A DNA stretch of 10,317 bases from Opitutales bacterium. GTDB taxonomy: Bacteria; Verrucomicrobiota; Verrucomicrobiia; Opitutales; UBA2987. Position 1 is the stretch's first letter. Every line of letters starts with the position of its first letter. The DNA is taken from NCBI GenBank assembly GCA_965226885.1, contig CBDDEL010000003.1, positions 1-10,317 on the forward strand, given 5' to 3'. The translations under genes and the position numbers were made by a program. The notes under the pieces are model-generated. The model saw only the letters and a list, made by a program, of their open reading frames with translations, ran no database searches and was not told the origin of the DNA. Positions 1 through 10,317 of this stretch are shown here, in pieces.

Positions 1-285
1 ATGCTAGCCAAAACGCCCCATATCACCGATATATTCACACTATTTGCCCAATTTTTTACTTCTGTTTCAGGGCTTACAATAATTTTAAAACAGCTTCTAA
101 AGAGGGCCTATACACCCGTTCTTGTTGCAAGTTGTTGAAAACAGTTGAATTAAACCCTTATATGCCTACCGGAGGTACTTCACTTTCCAGTTTATCTTAC
201 AGGATTACGCCTGTGGCGCCTCGTTCTTTATTGAGCAGGACCCACCCAGGGCGTGCTTACAAGCGAAATATGTCCTCTTTGGAGC

Positions 286-327
286 AAAAAAAAGCCGCTG
301 ATCGGTTGTAAGCCAGGGGCCTTTTTT
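286..327. terminator. Probable (bidirectional) intrinsic terminator hairpin
   Basis: A8 (286-293), imperfect stem gccgctg...caggggc, then T6 (322-327); lies downstream of the leftward genes. Confidence 0.55.
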
Positions 328-328
328 G

Positions 329-343
329 TGTACTCGAAGCGGG
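329..343 (-). other. tRNA-3'-end-like fragment (att-like site)
   Basis: Minus strand reads CCCGCTTCGAGTACA, resembling the T-stem 3' half plus acceptor 3' strand of a tRNA-Leu (from memory). It is followed by a terminator hairpin and matches 5152-5166 at 13 of 15 positions. Confidence 0.5.
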
Positions 344-428
344 TATTGCCGGGATGTTTGAGGCCAATACACAACGGCTTTAAGCAAATAATATGCACAA
401 AGGCATATTTGTATTATGCACTTGTGCA

Positions 429-755
429 TTAGTCAAACCACTCGGTCAATTTATCAGCGGCCTGCCGTTTTACTTCTGGCGTGATATGTGCGGCAACAAC
501 GGCGACCGCGCCAATCAGCACTCCCAGGTCGTCTGCGAATCCAATGCCGGGCGTTACGTCCGGTATGGCGTCAATCGGCGATACGAAGTAGGCCAGCGCA
601 CCCATCACCACGCCTTTGGCCCACTTGGGCGTGTCCTTTGATTCGGCGGCGTAATAGAGTTGCAACGCTTTCTCTACCAGAGTGTGCCCGGCAATGCGGG
701 CAAATATGTTAAGTTTCTGAAAGAATCCAGCCTCGTTATAATTCTTGTCGGCCAT
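429..755 (-). CDS. YkvA / DUF1232 family small membrane protein
   Basis: Signature LAYFVSPIDAIPDVTPGIGFADD after TPKWAK; AGGAG RBS upstream (767-771). Confidence 0.9.
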   Translation of the reverse strand: MADKNYNEAGFFQKLNIFARIAGHTLVEKALQLYYAAESKDTPKWAKGVVMGALAYFVSPIDAIPDVTPGIGFADDLGVLIGAVAVVAAHITPEVKRQAADKLTEWFD

Positions 756-773
756 GTAAGTCTGTTCTCCTAT

Positions 774-806
774 GAAAAAGCCCCATCAGGCAAAAGCTCT
801 GTGGGG
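774..806 (-). terminator. Intrinsic terminator-like hairpin
   Basis: Minus strand CCCCACAG...CTGATGGGG followed by CTTTTTC. Confidence 0.55.
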
Positions 807-867
807 TTGGTTTAGCGGTCTCTGAATAGTCCGCGGGGGGTTTTGGGCGGGTAAGATAGATCGGGCG

Positions 868-1071
868 TTAGATCGCCTCAGAATGCGCCTGGGGGGATTT
901 GGCACTGTTGAAATGATCCTCAAGTACCTGGCGAATAATCGTATTGCGCGTCTGCCAGGAATCGCCAGCGGCGTTATCCAGCAGAGCAATCAGGACGCGC
1001 GGTATTTTGATAGCGACAATTTTCAATTCCTCGGTTTCTGGTCGCTTGACCGAGGGGGTTGATGTTGACAT
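868..1071 (-). CDS. Ribbon-helix-helix (CopG/Arc-like) DNA-binding protein
   Basis: 67 aa; alternating strand KIVAIKIP, helix ...LLDNAA, then TRNTIIRQVL fits the RHH pattern; ACAGGAG RBS. Confidence 0.7.
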   Translation of the reverse strand: MSTSTPSVKRPETEELKIVAIKIPRVLIALLDNAAGDSWQTRNTIIRQVLEDHFNSAKSPQAHSEAI

Positions 1072-1102
1072 GATACGCTCCTGTTGTTGTGGGTTTGAGC
1101 AA

Positions 1103-1155
1103 AGAAAAAGGCCCCTGACAGAGATTGCCAGGGGCGTGTGATTTGTCGTACTCGA
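1103..1155 (-). terminator. Terminator hairpin; member of the intergenic repeat family
   Basis: Minus strand GCCCCTGGCA-atctc-TGTCAGGGGC then CTTTTTCTTT; the G-U pair works on the minus strand; similar to 1581-1630. Confidence 0.7.
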
Positions 1156-1179
1156 TAGTTCAGCGGTCGGGGGGGGCGA

Positions 1180-1560
1180 TCACCTTTCGCTTAGTGCCTG
1201 GTAAGCGGGGAAAAAGGCGTTGTTGATGAGATAATCGACGCTTTTGATGTAGTCGCTTGCCAGCACTTCGGCTTGCTCAATGGCCCTTTGTGCCGCGGCG
1301 TCTATGATCGCCTGGGGAGGCGTGTGCCCGTTGATGTTCAGCTTCGCCTTTAAGCCAACGGCAAACTCGTGGATCCGTTGATCTTTCTGCTCGACCGTTA
1401 ACCCTTTGGAGAAGATATACGCGCCATCAGCGGAGTAAAATATCCGGGATCCATCCTTGAGAGTGATTATGCTACTGCCGCTTTTTATCTCCGGTTTCGC
1501 TATTGCAAAGACGGTTTTAATTGCCTGGTGTTCCTCTGCGCTCAATTCACGAATATCCAT
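1180..1560 (-). CDS. Hypothetical protein (126 aa)
   Basis: Open frame with AAGGAG RBS, bounded by repeat/terminator elements on both sides; no family recognised. Confidence 0.7.
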   Translation of the reverse strand: MDIRELSAEEHQAIKTVFAIAKPEIKSGSSIITLKDGSRIFYSADGAYIFSKGLTVEQKDQRIHEFAVGLKAKLNINGHTPPQAIIDAAAQRAIEQAEVLASDYIKSVDYLINNAFFPAYQALSER

Positions 1561-1580
1561 ATCGCTCCTTTGTACGGGAT

Positions 1581-1630
1581 AGAAAAAGCCCCTGGCGATG
1601 TTCTACCAGGGGGCGTGTGTTTTGTTCTAC
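1581..1630 (-). terminator. Terminator hairpin; member of the intergenic repeat family
   Basis: CCCCTGG (1589-1595) / CCAGGGG (1606-1612) stem with an A tract on the left (U tract on minus); shares the flank cgtgtg.tttgt..tac with 1103-1151. Confidence 0.65.
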
Positions 1631-1758
1631 GCGGCGCACGTCCTTGATGCACAAAAAGCTATGAAACAGCATTATTAAAGCTGTCTGAGAGCAATCAACA
1701 AGTGGGGCTCCCCCTTGCACTTTTCATATAATCGCCCTCAGGCAGTTTAAGGTTTTGG

Positions 1759-2514
1759 CTACTTGTCAAAGGCGCGGCTGATCATTTCAGATGCCTTTGC
1801 TTTGCTCACGCGCGGCGGGCCGCCATTAAGTTCTGTGGGTGTGGTCAGCAAAGTTTTGATTTCATTGGCAAGCGCGGGATCCGTTTTATTGCTCTTGCTG
1901 ATGTTTTGCAAAGCAATGATCTGGCGGCTCGTTGCTGGTGACGGATCATCACCCACGTCAAAGCGTTCCGGCCCTTGTTCACGCGGGGGGGGGTTGAAGT
2001 CCTGCTCGTAGTCATGCCCCAGATCGGCATTGAAAGCGGGCGGCTGACCGTTGGTGTGTTGGCCGTTGTTGCTGGTTGCCTGGGGCTGGTCGTCTCCATC
2101 GTACAGGTGCAGGCCAATGCCGAACATAGAACAGCACTTTTTCTGAGCATCGACCGCGGCAGTCTTGAGAGCATCGCCCAGAGGGAATCCTTTATTGATC
2201 TGCCCATGACCATAGTTCTCACGGGTTATTGTTCGCCCATCCTCAAGGGTGATCGAGAGGGAGCCTTTAACGGAGACCGCGGAATCCGTAATGCCGGCCA
2301 CTTCGGTTCGGAAGTCCCAGGCAAAAGGAAACAGCGCATCGAGGCGGCGGGTGTAATCAGGGTGTCCTACATAGGACAGGGCTTTGTTGCCAGTGCCAGC
2401 GTCCTGGCGAATCTTTATGACGTTGTTTGGAAAGGGTGTGTAGCATTCACCGATAAGCTGTTCAACATCGACTTCGGGAAGCAGATCGGTCAGGTCAGCG
2501 TCTGTTATAGCCAT
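1759..2514 (-). CDS. Rad52/Rad22-family (Sak-like) single-strand annealing protein
   Basis: Motifs PFP..IKIR, LSYV....YTRRLDALF..W.F and ALKTAAVDAQKKCCSMFGIGLHLY are typical of the Rad52/22 fold; low-complexity linker and small C-terminal helical module; GAAAGGA RBS. Confidence 0.88.
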   Translation of the reverse strand: MAITDADLTDLLPEVDVEQLIGECYTPFPNNVIKIRQDAGTGNKALSYVGHPDYTRRLDALFPFAWDFRTEVAGITDSAVSVKGSLSITLEDGRTITRENYGHGQINKGFPLGDALKTAAVDAQKKCCSMFGIGLHLYDGDDQPQATSNNGQHTNGQPPAFNADLGHDYEQDFNPPPREQGPERFDVGDDPSPATSRQIIALQNISKSNKTDPALANEIKTLLTTPTELNGGPPRVSKAKASEMISRAFDK

Positions 2515-2544
2515 TGATTTGATTCCTTTCGGTTGTGGTGGTTG

Positions 2545-2805
2545 TTAAACTTGACCATGTGCATCGGGGTACGCGCACGTTGGACGGCCTGGATCTAACT
2601 CTCTTTTTGCACAAAGCCGTCTGTGGGCTTCTATTGAAAAGCCGTCTTGCATGACGCAGACAGACATGCCATTGTCGTAGTTGATGAAATTCACATCCGT
2701 CTTTTCGGGCTGTGCGTGGGTGTCCTCAAACACTTTGGATCCTTTCGAGGTGATGGGGCGACCTTTTGCGGGTCGCCCAGGTGGATGTGCTTCAGGCCGC
2801 ATCAT
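2545..2805 (-). CDS. Possible hypothetical protein (86 aa)
   Basis: Fills the gap in the leftward operon and overlaps the end of the upstream gene; no clear RBS or motif. Confidence 0.3.
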   Translation of the reverse strand: MMRPEAHPPGRPAKGRPITSKGSKVFEDTHAQPEKTDVNFINYDNGMSVCVMQDGFSIEAHRRLCAKRELDPGRPTCAYPDAHGQV

Positions 2806-3046
2806 CAGTATTAGCCATGCAGTTCGAGGTGAGAAATTCGTACGCTTTATTCAAGACCAAGACAGCTTTGGGAATGTCATTGACCTTCAGCGAATTTGTC
2901 CGTTGCCAGTTGCCGTCTTTATCCAGATAGGAACGCTTGAATGTGACGGTTTGAACGGTCAGTTTTTTGTCTCCGATATTGTATGTATCCTCGAAAACAG
3001 ACGCAGAGCAAAGACCGTGACGGAATGTAATTTCTGGCTGTGGCAT
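2792..3046 (-). CDS. Small putative ssDNA-binding-type protein (84 aa; alternative in-frame start at 3121)
   Basis: P...FRHG..SASVF...TVTFKRSYLDKDGNWQRTNSLKVNDIPKAVLVL.KAYEFL resembles a widespread small beta-rich family with an SSB-like 'Y.DKDGNW' motif. AAGGAG RBS before ATG 3046; close to the Sak gene. Function is inferred. Confidence 0.65.
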   Translation of the reverse strand: MPQPEITFRHGLCSASVFEDTYNIGDKKLTVQTVTFKRSYLDKDGNWQRTNSLKVNDIPKAVLVLNKAYEFLTSNCMANTDDAA

Positions 3047-3141
3047 GTGTGGCTCCTTTATGGTGGTGGACTCCCGTATTGCCTGGGCAATCTCTGTTGG
3101 TGCATCTTCATATTTTGCCATTGGGCGATTCCTTTCAATGG

Positions 3142-3318
3142 TCAGGGGGCAAAATCAGTATCCCAACTGAACGAATATTCCTCTGGCGAATTGGTGAACT
3201 TCTCACACAGCTTTTCCAATTCATCGACAAACTGCTCGGGACGGCATGTGACCAGCCCGAAAAACTTCAATCTCACAACAGAGGTTTCAGGCTGATGGGG
3301 TGTAGTCTTTTCTGCCAT
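3142..3318 (-). CDS. Hypothetical protein (58 aa; not in the ORF track)
   Basis: MAEKTTPHQPETSVVRLKFFGLVTCRPEQFVDELEKLCEKFTNSPEEYSFSWDTDFAP; its ATG overlaps the upstream stop (TAATG coupling). Confidence 0.6.
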   Translation of the reverse strand: MAEKTTPHQPETSVVRLKFFGLVTCRPEQFVDELEKLCEKFTNSPEEYSFSWDTDFAP

Positions 3319-3500
3319 TAAATGACCTGGCCTTTCTCAGTAAGACGTTTGACAATCGTCTGAAAAACTGCGCTGGCGGTCTCTGGCGATTTGTGGCGCA
3401 AGATTTCCAGATTCTTGCCTTCAAAGACAATATCTTTGCACTCCAGTTTTATGTCGCGGCCTTCCAAACAAATCAGACGTTTTCCGTCTGCTATCCACAT
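3318..3500 (-). CDS. Hypothetical protein (60 aa), probable distant paralogue of 6778-7038 and 8547-8813
   Basis: GAGGA RBS; shares MW start, LxCLE(x)G and FQxIxxxLx(E/D)KG with the duplicated genes. Confidence 0.65.
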   Translation of the reverse strand: MWIADGKRLICLEGRDIKLECKDIVFEGKNLEILRHKSPETASAVFQTIVKRLTEKGQVI

Positions 3501-3559
3501 TTTTTTGATCCTCTTGTGGTGAATTGGGCGACTCGCAAAAGTCGCCCAGGTGGTTGGTT

Positions 3560-3745
3560 TTAATCAGGGCACGGGTCGTTGGCCTCCAGTTCTTCAGCGG
3601 CAACCAGGGCAACATATTCAGCAAGCCATTCCTCTGGCGCGTGTCCACCTACCTGTGCCTTTTCAATCTGCCATTCATAGTGTTGCTTGTCCTCATTGTG
3701 AGTGATGGTTACAGTCTGCCGTGCATGCCGAAAAGTGCGCTCCAT
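3560..3745 (-). CDS. Hypothetical acidic protein (61 aa)
   Basis: AAGGAG RBS, directly downstream of radC in the operon. Confidence 0.6.
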   Translation of the reverse strand: MERTFRHARQTVTITHNEDKQHYEWQIEKAQVGGHAPEEWLAEYVALVAAEELEANDPCPD

Positions 3746-3762
3746 TTATGGGTCTCCTTTGC

Positions 3763-4461
3763 TCAAAAGACATTCGCCTCTTTCATGCTCAAGAACTTAT
3801 CAGAGGCGACGATCAAATGATCGACCACCTCGATGCCCATGACTTGACCGGCTTGCACCATGCGCTTGGTGAGGGAAATATCCTCTTTTGAAGGCGTGAC
3901 ATCGCCAGAGGGATGGTTGTGGGCGAGTATCACCGAGGCCGCGCTTATGCCCACAGCGGGGGCAAAGACTTCTCGCGGATGCACCAGGCTGGCATTGAGA
4001 CTGCCCATGCTGATTGTATCGGTCTTGACCACCTGATTTCGTGCATTGAGAAAGATTGCCACAAAATTCTCTTTCTTGAGGTCTCTGATGAAGCGAATCT
4101 CAGGCAGAGCGTCAGCGGGCGAAGTGATCGGCGTATCCATGCCCATGCCTCTGTCCAGCACACGGCGCGAGAACTCCAGAACAGCTTTTAGCGTGAGCAA
4201 GTGGCCTTTGCTCAAATCATTGCCAACAAGCTGGCGGTTGACAATCTGCCCGGGCGGATGCTCAAGCTGAAAGTCTGTGAGAGATTTGAGAGGGTTTTTT
4301 CTCAAGAAAGACCGAAGTTTTGCCAGCACATCGCTACCATTGCGTTGCGGCATGCGTAGAACCAGCGCGAGCAATTCTTCGTCGGGCAGGGATTCAGCAC
4401 CATTTTCTTGGATCTTGTAAATCGGTTGCTCAATTTCGTACACTCCATTTATCATATACAT
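3763..4461 (-). CDS. radC: RadC family (JAB/MPN domain) protein
   Basis: GAESLPDEELLALVL N-terminus; ENF...LNARN, GSLNASLVHPREVF, LAHNHPSGDVTPSKED (HxH-x7-S-x2-D) and VDHLIV motifs. Confidence 0.95.
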   Translation of the reverse strand: MYMINGVYEIEQPIYKIQENGAESLPDEELLALVLRMPQRNGSDVLAKLRSFLRKNPLKSLTDFQLEHPPGQIVNRQLVGNDLSKGHLLTLKAVLEFSRRVLDRGMGMDTPITSPADALPEIRFIRDLKKENFVAIFLNARNQVVKTDTISMGSLNASLVHPREVFAPAVGISAASVILAHNHPSGDVTPSKEDISLTKRMVQAGQVMGIEVVDHLIVASDKFLSMKEANVF

Positions 4462-4499
4462 CGCTTATTTCTCCTGTGGTGGTTGGTTGGGTGTTGCCA

Positions 4500-4940
4500 T
4501 TAGCCGAAGATCGCCTTTGATGCAGCGGCGGCGGCTTCGTTTTTGTCGGTGTAATCCACGCCATTGATCCGATAGATTTTCTGCTCCGCTTCAGGTGCAG
4601 GAGCTGGCGGGGTTTCAGGTGGGGGTTCGTTGGCCGGTTTGCCATTGGTCGGGGGGTTCTCATTCGAGTATCGCCGGGGGGAATATTCCCCATTGCCATT
4701 TTCCTTGCTGGCGTGAAATTCGGCCTTGCGGTCGGCGGATGCCTTTTGAGCATCATTCCGCTTTTCGATGCGCGACAAAGCATCGTCGATCACAAGTGTT
4801 GCCCGTTCTTTTGTGGCCCCAGGTGAAGCGAGCCAAACGGCGGTGCGGTGCGCTTCTTCCGCGGTGAAGGTTGAGGACAACATCAGCTTTGGCAGCAAAG
4901 CGCGTTGCCGCGGGGTCGGTTTTTCTGTTGCGTCATCCAT
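4500..4940 (-). CDS. Hypothetical protein (146 aa) with N-terminal DUF3072-like helical module and Pro/Asn-rich linker
   Basis: GAAAGGA RBS; PTPRQ....TKERATLVID motif. Confidence 0.7.
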   Translation of the reverse strand: MDDATEKPTPRQRALLPKLMLSSTFTAEEAHRTAVWLASPGATKERATLVIDDALSRIEKRNDAQKASADRKAEFHASKENGNGEYSPRRYSNENPPTNGKPANEPPPETPPAPAPEAEQKIYRINGVDYTDKNEAAAAASKAIFG

Positions 4941-4993
4941 CGCTAAATCCTTTCTTGGAAATACACCTTTCGAGGTGTTGCATTACCGTTTTG

Positions 4994-5033
4994 CCCTGGT
5001 GAGTGTGACGGCACTTGCCAGGGTTATTTTTTT
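4994..5033 (+). terminator. Plus-strand intrinsic terminator, antisense to the leftward operon
   Basis: 12-bp stem CCCTGGTGAGTG/CACTTGCCAGGG with two wobble pairs valid only on the plus strand, followed by TTATTTTTTT. Confidence 0.6.
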
Positions 5034-5102
5034 GCCCGTTCATTGGGGGCGGGCAAATTCCCCGTCTATGGTTTTTATGCCAGAAACGCCGGGGATTCGC
5101 AC

Positions 5103-5144
5103 AAAAGAAAAAGGCCGCCGATCCTTACAGATCAGTGGCCTTTT
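5103..5144 (-). terminator. Terminator downstream of the recombinase gene
   Basis: Minus strand AAAAGGCCACTGATC-tgtaag-GATCGGCGGCCTTTTTCTTTT. Confidence 0.7.
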
Positions 5145-5151
5145 GCGTTGT

Positions 5152-5169
5152 TGTACTCGGGGCGGGAGT
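5152..5169 (-). other. tRNA-3'-end-like fragment (att-like site)
   Basis: Minus strand ACTCCCGCCCCGAGTACA begins 3 bp after the recombinase stop codon and resembles a tRNA-Leu 3' end; followed by a terminator. Confidence 0.55.
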
Positions 5170-5172
5170 TAT

Positions 5173-6216
5173 CTACTTGCCCAGGATGGTAGCGATAACG
5201 CCATGTGCCAATTCCTCTTTCTCTGTGTATCTGGCCGGCATGCGCGTATCCTTCCATCGACCAGCAGTTTGAAGCTGTGGCATTGTGGCTTTTCCCTCAA
5301 CCAGACTTTGGGCTGTGCCGACCCGAAAAGAATGTCCTGATATGCCAGCAACGTCTATTTGGGCTTTGCGGGCCACGTCCTTGATCATGTCGCGTACCGC
5401 GGTAATGCCGATTGCGACATTGCCCATTTTACAGTTTTGATAGATACGTCTGAACAATGGCCCTTCACAGACACCAGATAGACGCTGGTATTTTTTAATG
5501 GCCTTTATTGTCCGCTTCTGAAGATAAACTTCTCGCCCTTCGCCTTCCTGGTCGGTCTTTGAGCGGGGTATCAAAAGTGTGCCGGATCCGTTTTCTCGAG
5601 TACTGATATGCTCGCAATGGATAGCCCCCACTTCGGAAATCCTGAGCAACCCATTGCTCATTGTGCGAATGATAGCCGCATCACGCGCTTGCCGGATCCG
5701 CCCCTTTTGGGGTGTCTCTTTGCTGGAGGTCGGCGCGGTGTGCGCGGGACTGTCGGCAATGGTCGCCATTGTCATAGCGTCATCTACCTTGATACCCGTA
5801 ACCTGGCCTCGCCCCCGTGCTTGTGCCTCGGCATTGCGCTTGATGCCCTTGAGGGCTGTTTCTGATAGGAGAAAGTCAATGGGCTTGCCCGTGTGTCTGG
5901 CAATGAATTTGACAGCCGCCAAGACCATTGCTATTGATGCAGGGCTTTTCTCTCCGAGGTGCAGGTGCGCCAGATACCCATTGACCTGCTCGGACGTGAT
6001 CTGGCTTTCGTGGAAGCGCGTGGCGACCTTCATAAGTGCCTGGTCGATGTCGCCGGTGATCTTTGCGGGCTGCTCGATCTTTTCACACCAATTCAAGAAG
6101 TGCGTTACCGCGTGGCAATAGACCCGCTTGGTATTGAAAGCAATGGATTGAAGCTGAAGCGACTGCGATGTTTCGGCAATGGCCTGTTCGGTGGCGATGC
6201 TCAAGGCCTTGTCCAT
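5173..6216 (-). CDS. Tyrosine recombinase, Cre-like subfamily
   Basis: Catalytic set R (LLRISE), K (RSKTD), HxxR (SGHSFRVG), W (AGRW, Trp as in Cre rather than His) and Y (PARY); N-terminal SAM-like region; GAGGA RBS. Confidence 0.93.
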   Translation of the reverse strand: MDKALSIATEQAIAETSQSLQLQSIAFNTKRVYCHAVTHFLNWCEKIEQPAKITGDIDQALMKVATRFHESQITSEQVNGYLAHLHLGEKSPASIAMVLAAVKFIARHTGKPIDFLLSETALKGIKRNAEAQARGRGQVTGIKVDDAMTMATIADSPAHTAPTSSKETPQKGRIRQARDAAIIRTMSNGLLRISEVGAIHCEHISTRENGSGTLLIPRSKTDQEGEGREVYLQKRTIKAIKKYQRLSGVCEGPLFRRIYQNCKMGNVAIGITAVRDMIKDVARKAQIDVAGISGHSFRVGTAQSLVEGKATMPQLQTAGRWKDTRMPARYTEKEELAHGVIATILGK

Positions 6217-6243
6217 GTGGGATCCTCTCTTTTCTGTTAGGGT

Positions 6244-6287
6244 TGCAAAGTAGTGCGTTTATGGGTAAATATACACAATACTTTGCA
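6244..6287. other. Candidate lox-like recombination site / operator
   Basis: 19-bp inverted arms 6244-6262 and 6269-6287 match at 16 of 19 positions; core AGTAGTGCGTTTA-TGGGTAAA-TATACACAATACT (13-8-13). Confidence 0.65.
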
Positions 6288-6343
6288 CGCCAGACAAGGG
6301 CAATTATTCAAGCCGTAGATTTCAAGAATATCATTGATTACTA

Positions 6344-6371
6344 TTGCATTTTTTTAAGACGATCCTATTTT
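6344..6371 (+). promoter_or_regulatory. Possible sigma70 promoter for the rightward operon
   Basis: TTGCAT-N16-TATTTT in the AT-rich divergent intergenic region. Confidence 0.35.
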
Positions 6372-6411
6372 TGGTGTAACAGTTTTTCCACCACCACACA
6401 GGAGCAAGGCA

Positions 6412-6596
6412 ATGCCGTACTTCCGCGAATCTCACTACACAAAAAATTGCTGGCAGGCTTCACACCTGACCAGCGGGCGGGACTCGATAAAGTGTCTGCT
6501 CAAAAGGGGCGATCACTGGCGGGCCTGGTGCGCGATGCTGTTGACCGACACCTTCAAAGTGTCGCAGACGACCAGGGGCAAGGAATCAGAAAGTGA
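6412..6596 (+). pseudogene. RHH/CopG-like regulator interrupted by a 1-nt frameshift at A6 (6441-6446)
   Basis: AGGAG RBS plus ATG 6412 gives MPYFRESHYTK. The -1 frame continues KLLAGFTPDQRAGLDKVSAQKGRSLAGLVRDAVDRHL (RHH pattern) to TGA 6596. One extra A joins the two frames. Confidence 0.6.
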
Positions 6597-6668
6597 GGGG
6601 TGCGCGATGTGGAGATGGATCGAGCGAGCGCGGGAAGGGCGTACCGTTCAGGTTTTGATGGAGCGGAC

Positions 6669-6727
6669 AAAAAAAAGGTCGCCAGCGGCTAACTGGCGAC
6701 CCTCAAAAATGATGCTCCTATGTGACG
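6669..6727 (-). ncRNA. Predicted ~58-nt antisense small RNA 1
   Basis: Promoter TTGACT(6761-6756)-N17-TATATT(6738-6733); perfect 9-bp terminator stem 6677-6685/6693-6701 followed by U8. Confidence 0.6.
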
Positions 6728-6777
6728 CAACCAATATAATCCAAAAAAAATGAGAAGTCAAAGAAAAGGGGGTAGCG

Positions 6778-7038
6778 ATGTGGCTCTACACGAAAGAGGG
6801 CGAGGCTTTCGAGACTTTGACGTGCCTGGAGACGGGGGCACAGGTGATACGATCAGGCGAGGGTGCAGAACTCTGGTGGCGCGGGAATGTGATCGACCGA
6901 CCGCTTGAGCAAGACGAAATGAAACTTGCCTCGAATGATGGCGAGCGGCATTTTCAGGTAATATGTGACGCGCTCCTGGACAAAGGCGATCTGGCCGGAT
7001 ATGCGGGGCCTGTGAGGTACCCGGTACCTGGGGAATAA
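6778..7038 (+). CDS. Hypothetical protein, copy A (86 aa)
   Basis: 73/86 aa identical to 8547-8813 with many synonymous differences; AAGGGGG RBS. Confidence 0.85.
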   Translation: MWLYTKEGEAFETLTCLETGAQVIRSGEGAELWWRGNVIDRPLEQDEMKLASNDGERHFQVICDALLDKGDLAGYAGPVRYPVPGE

Positions 7039-7064
7039 TAGAAAGGGAGAGATAGGATGCTCAA

Positions 7065-7323
7065 ATGAATTTTTGGCCGAGCAAAAGATGAACCTATTAG
7101 AGAAAAAACTGGAATACGAACTTTGGAAAATGGAACTCGTGTTCAAGATTGAGTTGTCGAGAAACCGTGCCGCCCAAAAGGAACTGTCGGAAAAAGAGCC
7201 GGTTTTTTGAAGCAGATAGAAAAGATAGAAAAAGACCTGAAGATAACGCAAGCGACCTATGACAGCTTAAACGCTTTACACACAGCCGAAGTGGGCAAGC
7301 TGGCGAAATTCGGGGGGGGATGA
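7065..7323 (+). pseudogene. Coiled-coil-like small protein apparently broken at two T tracts
   Basis: Adding one T at 7070-7074 and one at 7203-7208 gives MNFLAEQKMNLLEKKLEYELWKMELVFKIELSRNRAAQKELSEKEPVFLKQIEKIEKDLKITQATYDSLNALHTAEVGKLAKFGGG. The intact middle piece is 7088-7210. Confidence 0.4.
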
Positions 7324-7389
7324 CAGGCGCAAAGGAGCGCAGTACCGCGGCAAAGCGTTTTTTAACCTGGGGGTGAGGACAAGCGTAAG

Positions 7390-7698
7390 ATGCCAAGATC
7401 GAATCCGTTTAATCCGGGCGATCCGGTCGATGTGGTGAATTGGGAAATCTTCGAGGACGTGGCCGCGAGCTATCCGATGACGTTTGAGCAGTTGTGTTCT
7501 CGGATGCTCTACGGCGAACCAACCGACAGCCTCGTGGAGTTTGTCGCGGCCAAAGTTGGCGAGATGGTGCAAGCGGGCGTTCTGCTCGAGTACGGGGATG
7601 TGTTGAGCATTCCGGCCAATAGACCGAGGCGGCCAAAGGCGAAACGACAGCCTCGGACAAAGAAAGAGGCGGATCCACGCCAGGCAGTTTTGTTTTGA
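7390..7698 (+). CDS. Hypothetical protein (102 aa), possibly winged-helix-like with a basic tail
   Basis: GAGGA RBS; helix then MVQAGVLLEYGDVLSI (wing-like), followed by an R/K-rich C-terminus. Confidence 0.6.
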   Translation: MPRSNPFNPGDPVDVVNWEIFEDVAASYPMTFEQLCSRMLYGEPTDSLVEFVAAKVGEMVQAGVLLEYGDVLSIPANRPRRPKAKRQPRTKKEADPRQAVLF

Positions 7699-7776
7699 GA
7701 GGCGTATAGGCGCGATTTAAGAGCCGTCCCGAGCGGGGAGCCGGGATTACACGCATGCGCGCGCGCGGAAAACCAC

Positions 7777-7805
7777 TTGACAGAGTGTATTTTTCTTCTT
7801 ATTGT
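7777..7805 (+). promoter_or_regulatory. Sigma70-like promoter
   Basis: TTGACA(7777-7782)-N17-TATTGT(7800-7805). Confidence 0.65.
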
Positions 7806-7809
7806 ATGC

Positions 7810-7912
7810 CTGATACCCAATATATAGGAATCGGCTATCCCCCACACTGCGGCTTTTGCCGCCAGCCTTTTGCGTCCAAAGTCCGATCCTATATGGCTCT
7901 TTTGGGTATCAG
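7810..7912 (+). ncRNA. Predicted long-stem structured RNA or leader
   Basis: 7810-7820 pairs with 7902-7912 (11 bp perfect), 7822-7829 with 7887-7894, and 7831-7834 with 7883-7886; inner hairpin GCGGC-TTTT-GCCGC; begins at the predicted transcription start. Confidence 0.5.
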
Positions 7913-7939
7913 CGCAGAAGGCTACCTTTCTTTGTCTCA

Positions 7940-7999
7940 AAACTCCCTCTCCCAAGCAGTAAACTCTCTCCCAAGCAGTAAAACTCCCCCACAAGTAGT
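7940..7999. repeat. Three tandem 19-21 bp imperfect direct repeats (iteron-like)
   Basis: AAACTCCCTCTCCCAAGCAGT, AAACTCTCTCCCAAGCAGT, AAACTCCCCCACAAGTAGT. Confidence 0.85.
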
Positions 8000-8047
8000 T
8001 ACAAAAAGATTTAGTCCAAATAGGGCTATTTGGTGCAGGCATATCAC

Positions 8048-8130
8048 AAAAAAAAACCCCGATGGACGGAACCCACCGGGGCAAATATAGAAGCGACCGA
8101 AGATGGCCAGTAATCGGCAGCGACAAGTAC
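8048..8130 (-). ncRNA. Predicted ~83-nt antisense small RNA 2
   Basis: Promoter TTGACA(8165-8160)-N17-TAAATT(8142-8137); terminator CCCCGGTGGG-ttccg-TCCATCGGGG (G-U pairs on minus) followed by U9. Confidence 0.62.
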
Positions 8131-8236
8131 AAGACCAATTTAGGCTTTCGATGGTTTGGTGTCAACCGTTTTTAGACAGAAAGGGAATTGTCATGGCTGA
8201 CATGGTGGACAATCCACTGGCGATCACCAGGGAGGA

Positions 8237-8572
8237 GTGGCAAAGAAAGCACGCGAACAAGCAGAAATCTTTTCAATCCCAGATAGACCGCGGTTAGAGG
8301 TGGTCACGGCTGAAAGCATAAAGCTGGATCGCGCACCGGACAGGTCGAGCAACCCGTCACTACGTGGCGAATTGTTGGGATGGGTGATTGACAAAGAACA
8401 AGCGCACATGAAAGGATTCACACCGGAGCGGCGATTTTTCCTTATCTGGAAAAAGGCGCAATCACTGTATGAAACGCGCCTGCATAAAAGACTACCAAAC
8501 GACAAGGTAAAAAAAATGAGAAGTCAATTTTTACAAGGGGGTTGCTGTGTGGCTATACACTTCCGAAGGTGA
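8237..8572 (+). CDS. Hypothetical protein (start and end uncertain)
   Basis: Open frame from a GTG. It overlaps an RBS-backed short ORF (8193-8297) in another frame and the next gene, so its boundaries may be affected by indels. Confidence 0.45.
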   Translation: MAKKAREQAEIFSIPDRPRLEVVTAESIKLDRAPDRSSNPSLRGELLGWVIDKEQAHMKGFTPERRFFLIWKKAQSLYETRLHKRLPNDKVKKMRSQFLQGGCCVAIHFRR

Positions 8573-8813
8573 CGCTATCGAGACCATCACATGCCTGACG
8601 AGCGGCGCACAAGTCCTGCGGTCGGGAGAAGGCGCGGGTGCAGAATTGTGGTGGCGTGGAAATGTCATAGATCGCCCACTTGAGCAGGATGAGATGAAAA
8701 TTGCGCCGTCTGATGGCGAGCGGCACTTTCAGGCGATATGCGATGCACTCCTGGACAAAGGCGAGTTGGCGGGATACGCGGGGCCTGTGAAGTATCCCGT
8801 GCCCGGCGAATGA
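8547..8813 (+). CDS. Hypothetical protein, copy B (88 aa)
   Basis: Paralogue of 6778-7038; GTG start, AAGGGGG RBS. Confidence 0.85.
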   Translation: MWLYTSEGDAIETITCLTSGAQVLRSGEGAGAELWWRGNVIDRPLEQDEMKIAPSDGERHFQAICDALLDKGELAGYAGPVKYPVPGE

Positions 8814-8833
8814 GACACACGAGAGGGTGAGCA

Positions 8834-9994
8834 ATGACAAACGAGAAGTTGAACGAGCACTTGGTGGCAATCTCCAAAGACGTGGCCGTTGCGCTATGGG
8901 GCGAACCCAACGCCAAACTATCCAAAGGCGACAAGTTACGATGGGGCAACAAGGGATCCAGAAGCCTTGACGCGGGCGAGGGCCTGTGGTACGACTTCGA
9001 GGCCAATACTGGCGGCGACGTCCTTGCACTTGTGGCAATACAGTGTAAAACAGACAGGCGCGGGGCCATCCAATGGCTGAAGGATAGCGGCTATTGGATC
9101 GAATCTCCCCCCAGACGCAATATGGGACATTTTAAGAGGCGATCTAATCGACCTACCCGACAACACAGAGCAAAGGCAGATCGGGCAAAGCCGCCAGCAC
9201 CAGCCAAAGAGAGCGAGACGGCGTTATATGCGAAAAGGCTATGGGGGCAATCAAAGAAGATCGGCAACAATGCCGAGCATCCCTTCAGACGCTGGACAAC
9301 GACCGGAGACAAGCCGGGGGTACTCCATCCCTATTGCGCGGTTCCTGGCGGGATCCGTTGGCATAGTGGCAGGGGGCTGATTGTCTGCGGGATTTTTTCC
9401 CTGAATGCATGGGGAACTGACGGCATTCCCAAAGGCGATCCGCTGGCGGTGCAGGCGCTGGCGCTTGACCAGAGCGGGGAAAACAGGTATTGCCTGGGAG
9501 AAAACAAAGACTTGCGCCGGTGCAGTTATGGGCCTGTTTCCGCTGGCGTCTTTATTTTGGGGGATCCAACAAGCGAGCGCGTGAACATTGTTGAAGGTGT
9601 GGCCGACGCGCTGGCGGTTTATAGCAGAGAGCCTGGGGCGGTTCTGGCAACGCTCGGCACGTCTGCCAAAATTGCCAACAAAGCGGATGTGATCGACTGG
9701 CTTTGCACAAAAGAGACGTGGCTATATCCTGACAACGACGAGAATAAAGCCAGCGAGAAGGGCACAGCGTCATTGATCAACGCCGTCAAAGTAAAAAGCC
9801 CTGACACTAAAATTAGGAAAGTGAGTGCCTGGGCTTTGGGTGATGATCCGGGTGAGTGGGCAAAGAGGACGCCATTCCCCGATATAGAAATATATGATTT
9901 TGAGGAAAAGAAAGGAATCCTTTTTGACAGTGGTATGGCCTGGGGAGAGGCCGACCGCATGGCAGTTCAAACTCTAATGGGGAGAGAGCAATGA
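8834..9994 (+). CDS. TOPRIM-domain DNA primase of mobile-element type
   Basis: N-terminal ZBD-like region (GLWYDFEANTGGDVLALV....AIQWL); TOPRIM motifs IVEGVADALAV, ATLGT and YPDND. Confidence 0.85.
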   Translation: MTNEKLNEHLVAISKDVAVALWGEPNAKLSKGDKLRWGNKGSRSLDAGEGLWYDFEANTGGDVLALVAIQCKTDRRGAIQWLKDSGYWIESPPRRNMGHFKRRSNRPTRQHRAKADRAKPPAPAKESETALYAKRLWGQSKKIGNNAEHPFRRWTTTGDKPGVLHPYCAVPGGIRWHSGRGLIVCGIFSLNAWGTDGIPKGDPLAVQALALDQSGENRYCLGENKDLRRCSYGPVSAGVFILGDPTSERVNIVEGVADALAVYSREPGAVLATLGTSAKIANKADVIDWLCTKETWLYPDNDENKASEKGTASLINAVKVKSPDTKIRKVSAWALGDDPGEWAKRTPFPDIEIYDFEEKKGILFDSGMAWGEADRMAVQTLMGREQ

Positions 9995-10317
9995 ATGAGA
10001 GTCGTGATTATGGCGAGGCCAAAGAAATAGAGGCAACGCCAGAGCAACGGGCCGAGCATTACAGAACAATGCCGCGGAAGGCTGTACCTATCAGCCAGAT
10101 CAAAGCGGAGTATCCCAACCCTATTTTGGCCGCAACAGGCAAGGGCAATGGGGCCGTGCTGACAGCTGCCAATATCTGCCTTTTGGCTGGTGAGGGCGGC
10201 ATTGCCAAGAGTGCTTTAACAATCTCGCTGGCGTTGGCTTATGCATGGGCCGGTGTAGAGGATCCAGACAATCCCAGAATGAAGCCTTTGACTGGCGGCA
10301 TTTTTGAGGGCATAGGT
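9991..10317 (+). CDS. RepA/AAA_25-type (RecA-fold) helicase, N-terminal part, truncated by the window edge
   Basis: ATG overlaps the primase stop (ATGA); frame stays open for 109 codons; ICLLAGEGGIAKSALTISLALA is a Walker A in a RepA-like context. Confidence 0.78.
   Translation, partial: MNESRDYGEAKEIEATPEQRAEHYRTMPRKAVPISQIKAEYPNPILAATGKGNGAVLTAANICLLAGEGGIAKSALTISLALAYAWAGVEDPDNPRMKPLTGGIFEGIG

Follow-up and report, generated by a model that had tools for sequence, protein, structure and literature searches.

A Cre-type recombinase gene and a candidate lox-like crossover site of its own on a 10.3-kb contig from a sponge-associated Opitutales bacterium

What is the role of a palindrome that lies directly in front of a tyrosine recombinase gene? 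The question is raised by a stretch of DNA of 10,317 bp (the window) that is a complete contig, C3, of the 17-contig, 5.48-Mb assembly of an Opitutales bacterium. The recombinase gene (P0001, 347 aa) was read as an open reading frame with its translation at 5173..6216 on the minus strand, and the palindrome occupies 6244-6287. A Cre-like enzyme paired with a lox-like site is a familiar kind of system, and the pair in the window is a predicted member of it. Because of its geometry, its position and the pattern seen in the family, the palindrome is probably the crossover site of this enzyme, if both of its conceivable roles are counted, that is, resolution or circularisation on the one hand and integration on the other.

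The core of the palindrome, read directly, has the 13-8-13 layout of a lox site (6249..6282). It consists of a left arm, AGTAGTGCGTTTA (6249-6261), an asymmetric spacer, TGGGTAAA (6262-6269), of which the central 6 bp are GGGTAA (6263-6268), and a right arm, TATACACAATACT (6270-6282). The arms are complementary at 10 of 13 positions, and the symmetry runs on outwards without a mismatch through TGCAA (6244-6248) and TTGCA (6283-6287). Since T6262 and A6269 pair as well, the 13-8-13 and 14-6-14 descriptions refer to one site, and the extended palindrome is 19-6-19 with 16 of 19 positions complementary (6244..6287). A repeat scan found weaker symmetry out to 6235-6262 and 6269-6296 (21/28 complementary, with 6 nt between). 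A sequence-only reading of the same DNA had reported this 13-8-13 palindrome with its 10/13 arms, asymmetric spacer and 5-bp perfect extension, about 30 bp upstream of the recombinase start; both its coordinates and its letters were exact, and the core begins 33 nt, the extended palindrome 28 nt, before the ATG. The palindrome is intergenic and non-coding, it spans 28-70 bp before the start codon, and its centre is at 49 bp. A Shine-Dalgarno-like GAGAGGA (6222..6228, minus strand), read by eye, stands 5 nt before the recombinase ATG, and a terminator-like hairpin follows the gene on the same strand (5118..5135). As single-stranded DNA, the extended palindrome would form a hairpin of -9.6 kcal/mol (z = -2.3); set beside integron attC sites, this hairpin has mismatches, has no extrahelical bases and is of modest stability.

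Whether such a palindrome needs any explanation depends on how often it arises by chance, which was assessed with 300 dinucleotide shuffles of the whole 10,317-bp window. An agreement of 10/13 is not above chance: 192 of the 300 shuffles give 11/13, and the window itself contains an 11/13 pair at 5111. The extended form behaves differently, as 16/19 is the best 19-nt arm pair of the window and was equalled in only 3/300 shuffles, and the 28-nt arms (21/28) were equalled in 1/300. A rule that asks for a 13-8-13 palindrome with at least 10/13 complementary positions and TA on both sides of the spacer finds 23 sites in the 5,479,947-bp assembly, the window site included, and from this rate about 0.0013 sites would be expected per 300 bp. 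A chance or decayed feature without a present function could explain the three mismatches in 13, a grade of symmetry that is common in shuffles, and also one metagenome contig that retains the right arm only, without the gene. However, the rarity of the extended form, the low expectation at this position and the fit of position and geometry to the family pattern described below make this explanation very unlikely.

The protein was compared with known recombinases by sequence, by predicted fold and by phylogeny. Pfam assigns it to Phage_integrase (4.1e-11) with an N-terminal SAM-like domain (Phage_int_SAM_4, 1.1e-07) that starts at residue 17 of 347. The top solved structure by sequence is Cre (E 7.7e-09), and the pairwise alignment with Cre covers 286 aa at 23 % identity (E 7e-14). 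In this alignment R192, K220, H295, R298, W321 and Y330 pair residue for residue with R173, K201, H289, R292, W315 and Y324 of Cre, and none of the six varies among 51 aligned homologues. The sequence-only reading had pointed to Cre-type motifs in the protein, and these hold up in the alignment: LLRISE, SGHSFRVG and the catalytic Trp correspond to LLRIAE, SGHSARVG and W315 of Cre, and the six catalytic residues are matched. An AlphaFold (AF2) model was built from the 51-homologue alignment (pLDDT 81.6) and searched against the PDB with Foldseek. The 20 matches listed to rank 30 are all chains of Cre or of Cre-derived Tre, with E values from 7.8e-13 to 5.8e-10 and TM scores of 0.48-0.57. The rmsd of the model is high (~11 A), which is probably due to the orientation of the modelled domains. 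After Cre and Tre come XerA (5.4e-08) and then IntI, XerH, XerD and lambda Int.

The XerS/difSL and XerH/difH systems likewise use one tyrosine recombinase and a palindrome, centred on 6 bp, beside the gene of the enzyme. The present enzyme resembles these in that XerA and XerH are its next-best folds after Cre. Unlike the Xer recombinases, it has a Trp (W321) rather than a His at the His-II position, its gene lies on a mobile element, and its NCBIfam scores of 36-47 bits stay far below cut-offs of 220-335 (XerA_Arch 46.9 against 220, XerD 40.2 against 329.6, XerC 35.8 against 335). The host genome carries its own XerC/D-like pair elsewhere.

A maximum-likelihood tree was made from 40 hand-picked rows, a small sample that was midpoint-rooted: 11 of the 120 homologue proteins listed (the cluster of the query among them), 20 loci that bear a site, Cre, four plasmid relatives and four host integrases. 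The recombinase falls into a 36-row clade (100/99) together with Cre and the plasmid relatives from Pantoea, Shewanella and Vibrio, while the host XerC/D-like pair and the two other host integrases stay outside. Its place within this clade is in a group of 14 rows (100/100), along with homologues from Acidobacteriota and Nitrospinota with lox-like sites, and the sister of this group is a Chloroflexota group whose members also have such sites. By its catalytic residues, its fold and its position in the tree, the enzyme is a Cre-type recombinase.

If the palindrome is the site of the enzyme, similar sites should accompany related genes, and the sequence-only reading had named their absence as grounds for giving up the idea. 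The close homologues, 78-100 % identical, form 33 clusters; almost all of them derive from metagenome assemblies in ENA, and their contigs reach 7.1 Mb. Searches of 60 related genomes (E <= 1e-10) and of 400 genomes of the phylum (E <= 1e-40) gave no match to the recombinase. The genome, viral and metagenome contig collections yielded homologues of 23-45 % identity and two gene remnants. The family test was made on 194 loci with homologues of 23-45 % identity, which are far from the clusters of 78-100 % identity, and it used the rule given above, with which the site in the window agrees. Within 300 bp upstream of the homologous genes 18 rule-obeying sites were found in 51,394 bp, compared with 2 in 1,145,980 bp of far flank. 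Comparable palindromes thus do occur near homologous genes, about 175-fold denser within 300 bp upstream than in the far flank. The corresponding Poisson P of 2e-35 is overstated, because several of the loci are near-duplicates and hence not independent; the rule, moreover, was set once the family patterns were known. The 18 upstream sites represent 15 distinct sequences, and their outer arms vary between loci yet stay complementary. Their centres precede the projected start by 2 to 230 bp, a range that includes the 49 bp of the window site. A rule-obeying upstream site is present in only 18 of the 194 loci (about a tenth); three more sites lie 300-1000 bp upstream, five within 1 kb downstream and four inside the recombinase genes themselves. 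A generic rule (any 13-8-13 with at least 11/13) gave an enrichment of only 2-fold within 1 kb (48 in 336,178 bp against 82 in 1,145,980 bp).

The family sites have a recognizable centre. The string GATAA-N6-TTATC occurs 30 times in 1.74 Mb of homologue loci, where 1.7 would be expected, and every one of these strings forms the middle of a longer palindrome with outer arms that differ by locus but are complementary. The window site departs from this pattern in two respects: its spacer ends in T...A, compared with A...T in nearly all family sites, and its arms extend over 18-19 bp, compared with 13-14 bp in the relatives. A degenerate form of its arm pattern had five matches in viral contigs, none of them palindromic, and a search of the homologue loci for arm-like sequence (up to 3 mismatches in 17) returned nothing beyond these five and three unrelated near-matches. 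Plasmid loci encoding relatives of Cre served as a control. Three of four have palindromes of 13-8-13 geometry with 12-13/13 complementary positions 120-710 bp upstream of the gene (Vibrio at -120, Pantoea at -171, Shewanella at -710).

Cre/loxP of phage P1 and the pair in the window have in common the catalytic hexad with Trp, the two-domain fold and an upstream 34-bp site of 13-8-13 layout. The right arm in the window opens with the same five bases, TATAC, as the right repeat of P1 lox, and 8 of 13 arm positions agree. Beyond the low identity of the enzymes, the differences are that the site is centred 49 bp from the start codon, whereas the annotated lox of the P1 record is centred 435 bp upstream of cre, and that, unlike those of loxP, its arms are imperfect and its symmetry is longer. 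The setting differs as well: the element resides in an uncultured bacterium associated with sponges, and in place of a P1-like genome it has genes for a primase, a helicase, RadC and an annealing protein.

Pairs of this kind have been predicted before. The sites of VCre/VloxP and SCre/SloxP were predicted in silico by palindromy, proximity to the gene and non-coding position and were then validated, as described by Suzuki and Nakayama (PMC3082901); the palindrome at 6249-6282, as a non-coding 13-8-13 near the gene, agrees with the criteria described there. By similar logic, Jelicic et al. nominated about 500 recombinase/site pairs in 2023, and 8 of 17 that were tested were active (PMC10250229). 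The account of their search in that paper asks for catalytic residues equivalent to R173, K201, H289, R292, W315 and Y324 of Cre, and its site filter for repeats of 13-15 bp with at most two asymmetric positions around an 8-bp spacer. The window site has three mismatches whether 13 or 15 positions are counted and so fails this filter, which is a search filter and not a biological definition; the published filter would therefore have missed the site. The recombinase is thus like VCre, SCre and the YR series in being a distant relative of Cre with a 13-8-13 site near its gene. Unlike these, it belongs to a separate clade with homologues from sponge symbionts and Chloroflexota, the pair is a predicted one, and the spacer ends differ.

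The intergenic region is shared with a second gene, and this raises the question of whether the palindrome is bound by something other than the recombinase. A ribbon-helix-helix (RHH, CopG-like) gene (6412..6596, plus strand) diverges from the recombinase gene across the same 195 bp. An ATG accompanied by an AGGAG box stands at 6412, and the frame that encodes the RHH part extends over 6441-6596. The two frames are one base out of register and meet at a run of six A (6441-6446) within A-AAA-AAT; either this run is a site of -1 frameshifting, or the assembly is wrong by one base, or the gene starts at a TTG at 6447. Pfam and NCBIfam gave no match for this RHH-like ORF, and a protein atlas places its 57-aa RHH stretch with CopG/RHH clusters (score 0.95, 188 of 256 shared features).

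The palindrome could accordingly be an operator of a divergent promoter region to which the RHH protein or another regulator binds, and not the recombinase. This reading would account for the divergent gene, for a promoter-like match that the palindrome overlaps, and for a symmetry of 18-19 bp per arm that exceeds Cre-type arms. On the other hand, homologous recombinase genes have palindromes of this geometry beside them, and a 13-8-13 layout with TA beside the spacer is the geometry of sites next to relatives of Cre. The palindrome is also nearer to the recombinase start (28 nt) than to the RHH start (125 nt). In addition, tblastn found no match to the RHH-like ORF in 200 homologue loci at 1e-4, though such a search has little sensitivity when a fold is this short and divergent. 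The presence of the divergent RHH gene keeps the operator reading alive in a weakened form, and it is considered improbable.

The promoter-like match itself, TTGTCT-N18-TATATT on the minus strand (6268..6297), overlaps the right arm and the spacer, and any function of it is conjectural. The sequence-only reading had seen in it a sign of autoregulation. The match is present and agrees at 9 of 12 positions, but matches of this quality occur at chance level in the window (3 found against 1.6 +/- 1.3 in shuffles) and are not enriched. As it is the best promoter-like match for the recombinase gene, occupation of the site would be expected to damp expression of the recombinase. Autoregulation of this kind is only a reasonable guess, for which resolution sites that contain promoters offer a precedent (described in PMC7157771). 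The same source describes the TnpS-TnpT/rst system of Tn4651-type transposons, in which the crossover site lies between a tyrosine recombinase gene and its divergent partner and promoters are found there too. The window site is likewise located between a tyrosine recombinase gene and a divergent gene. Unlike in that system, the divergent neighbour encodes an RHH-type protein of ~60 aa rather than TnpT, and Pfam gave no transposase match, of the Tn3 family or otherwise, among the 22 ORFs of the 10.3-kb contig.

If the palindrome is the crossover site of the recombinase, the reaction may be pictured after Cre/loxP. One monomer would bind to each 13-bp arm, and two occupied sites would pair as a tetramer. 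Y330 would cut at the edges of the central GGGTAA, and strands would be exchanged via a Holliday junction. The asymmetric spacer would give the site a direction. The enzyme would in this way turn multimers of a circular replicon into monomers, or it would circularise the element.

Which job such a site would have depends on what surrounds it. Downstream of the RHH gene, on the plus strand, the window carries a primase-like (Toprim) gene at 8834..9994 (PHROG 510 DNA primase, 1.4e-06; Pfam Toprim_2 0.0015, below the cut-off). It is followed at 9991..10317 by a gene for a RepA/AAA_25-like helicase (Pfam AAA_25 at 6.4e-04, short of the cut-off), of which the contig end leaves only the N-terminal 109 aa; the remainder was not found in the assembly. 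The contig has no terminal overlap of at least 20 nt, and the other contigs of the assembly have no DNA in common with it. A second copy of the site on the replicon, which the sequence-only reading had proposed to look for, did not turn up: blastn of 6230-6300 against the 5.48-Mb assembly returned only the site itself, and a degenerate two-arm scan did not supply a second copy either. The scan brought up one candidate partner, C10:144803-144838, which contains a perfect reverse complement of the right arm and a poor second arm; it was rejected as a chance match, with ~1.3 such half-sites expected. It sits in an AT-rich non-coding stretch with no tRNA, and a fragment of a tyrosine recombinase gene 6 kb away from it is unrelated to the recombinase of the window. 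With primase and helicase genes on the element and a single site in the assembly, multimer resolution or circularisation is the most likely job. That the palindrome is the lox-like crossover site of the Cre-type enzyme and serves this very job is rated, on the analysis as a whole, at about an even chance.

The same enzyme/site pair may instead serve integration and excision, with the palindrome as an attachment site that recombines with a similar sequence of the chromosome. Contigs of 5.8 and 7.1 Mb carry close homologues, and homologues with a primase neighbour are found inside chromosomes (loci L074 and L051). Decayed pieces of the recombinase gene, 88 % and 75-82 % identical at the amino-acid level, are present in two Latescibacterota chromosomes (L030 6001-6219; L078 6001-6177 and 9805-9936, the latter pieces ~3.6 kb apart). 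The megabase contigs and the chromosomal remnants fit integrated elements at least as well as plasmids. However, integration should leave two hybrid sites at the ends of an element, and the L074 genome has one (at up to 3 mismatches in 20 nt). Likewise, multi-copy elements in Acidobacteriota have one internal site apiece. The assembly contains no attB-like partner, its sole perfect half-site being the chance match on C10. The recombinase, with its SAM-like domain starting at residue 17, has no lambda-type arm-binding N-terminal domain according to Pfam, and no repeated half-sites that could be arm-type sites were found elsewhere on the 10.3-kb contig. An integrative role is therefore judged unlikely.

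The Acidobacteriota elements also bear on the idea of a crossover site in another way. Where a related element is present 2-3 times in a genome, one site is found per copy, with identical arms and with spacers that differ within the genome. This is as expected of crossover sites that are barred from recombining together. The elements are units of ~4.4 kb in chromosomes of Acidobacteriota MAGs of sponge type (L010 5799-10221 compared with L011 5800-10237; also L003, L004, L009 and L027). Each unit encodes a Cre-like recombinase, a protein of 600-690 aa for which Pfam has no family, and a protein of 131 aa that contains a zinc ribbon of IS1595 type, and its lox-like site is located 0.5-0.85 kb downstream of the recombinase gene. 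Homologues of the primase-like gene of the window (25-36 % identity) were observed beside recombinase homologues at five loci from Chloroflexota, Gemmatimonadota-type and metagenome sequences (L076, L193, L055, L074 and L051). At L076 the primase and recombinase genes are divergent with a lox-like site between them, as in the window.

Public sequencing runs that contain the stretch belong to four studies; the four named runs are sponge metagenomes, and all four runs whose contigs were compared with the window contain relatives of it. None of the joints listed from these metagenomes falls at the site in a way that points to a circle junction or an inversion. In run X9, a contig of depth 12.8 connects 5199 with 6298 through 27 letters, of which the first 13 are the exact right arm and the other 14 do not resemble the window. 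The relative it represents has neither the recombinase gene nor the left arm nor the spacer, and its endpoint is the boundary between spacer and right arm, which would also suit a real crossover site. The idea that it arose by deletion between the site and a pseudo-site near 5199 was rejected, as the would-be left arm there agrees at only 3/13 positions by eye. Over 1-7900 the summed contig depth exceeds that over 7913-10317 several-fold in the two most even runs, X6 and X9. Relatives with the left part (annealing protein, RadC and recombinase) may thus outnumber those with primase and helicase, contig depth being a poor measure of this. A 300-bp duplication of 76 % identity (6743-7036 and 8509-8811) encodes paralogous proteins of 86 and 88 aa without a family match. 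Metagenome contigs join across its copies, from 6912 to 8688 and from 8597 back to 6859, which implies that relatives differ by loss or gain of the intervening 1.8 kb.

A wider proposal is that the recombinase clade of sponge microbiomes serves as the mobility machinery for small elements of an undescribed class, each with one internal lox-like site whose spacer varies by copy. This is a distinctly doubtful extrapolation at present. Such a class may so far comprise the 4.4-kb multi-copy units of Acidobacteriota chromosomes and the versions with primase and helicase in the window and in Chloroflexota. If it were real, the X9 endpoint at the boundary of spacer and right arm would record natural cleavage at the site.

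If the predicted pair is active, an enzyme with 23 % identity to Cre and a target unlike loxP would join the mutually orthogonal recombinases that serve as tools for genome engineering. In the clade of sponge symbionts and Chloroflexota, tens of further enzyme/site pairs would be readable in the same manner. For the organism itself, the pair would be an ordinary housekeeping module of a mobile element.
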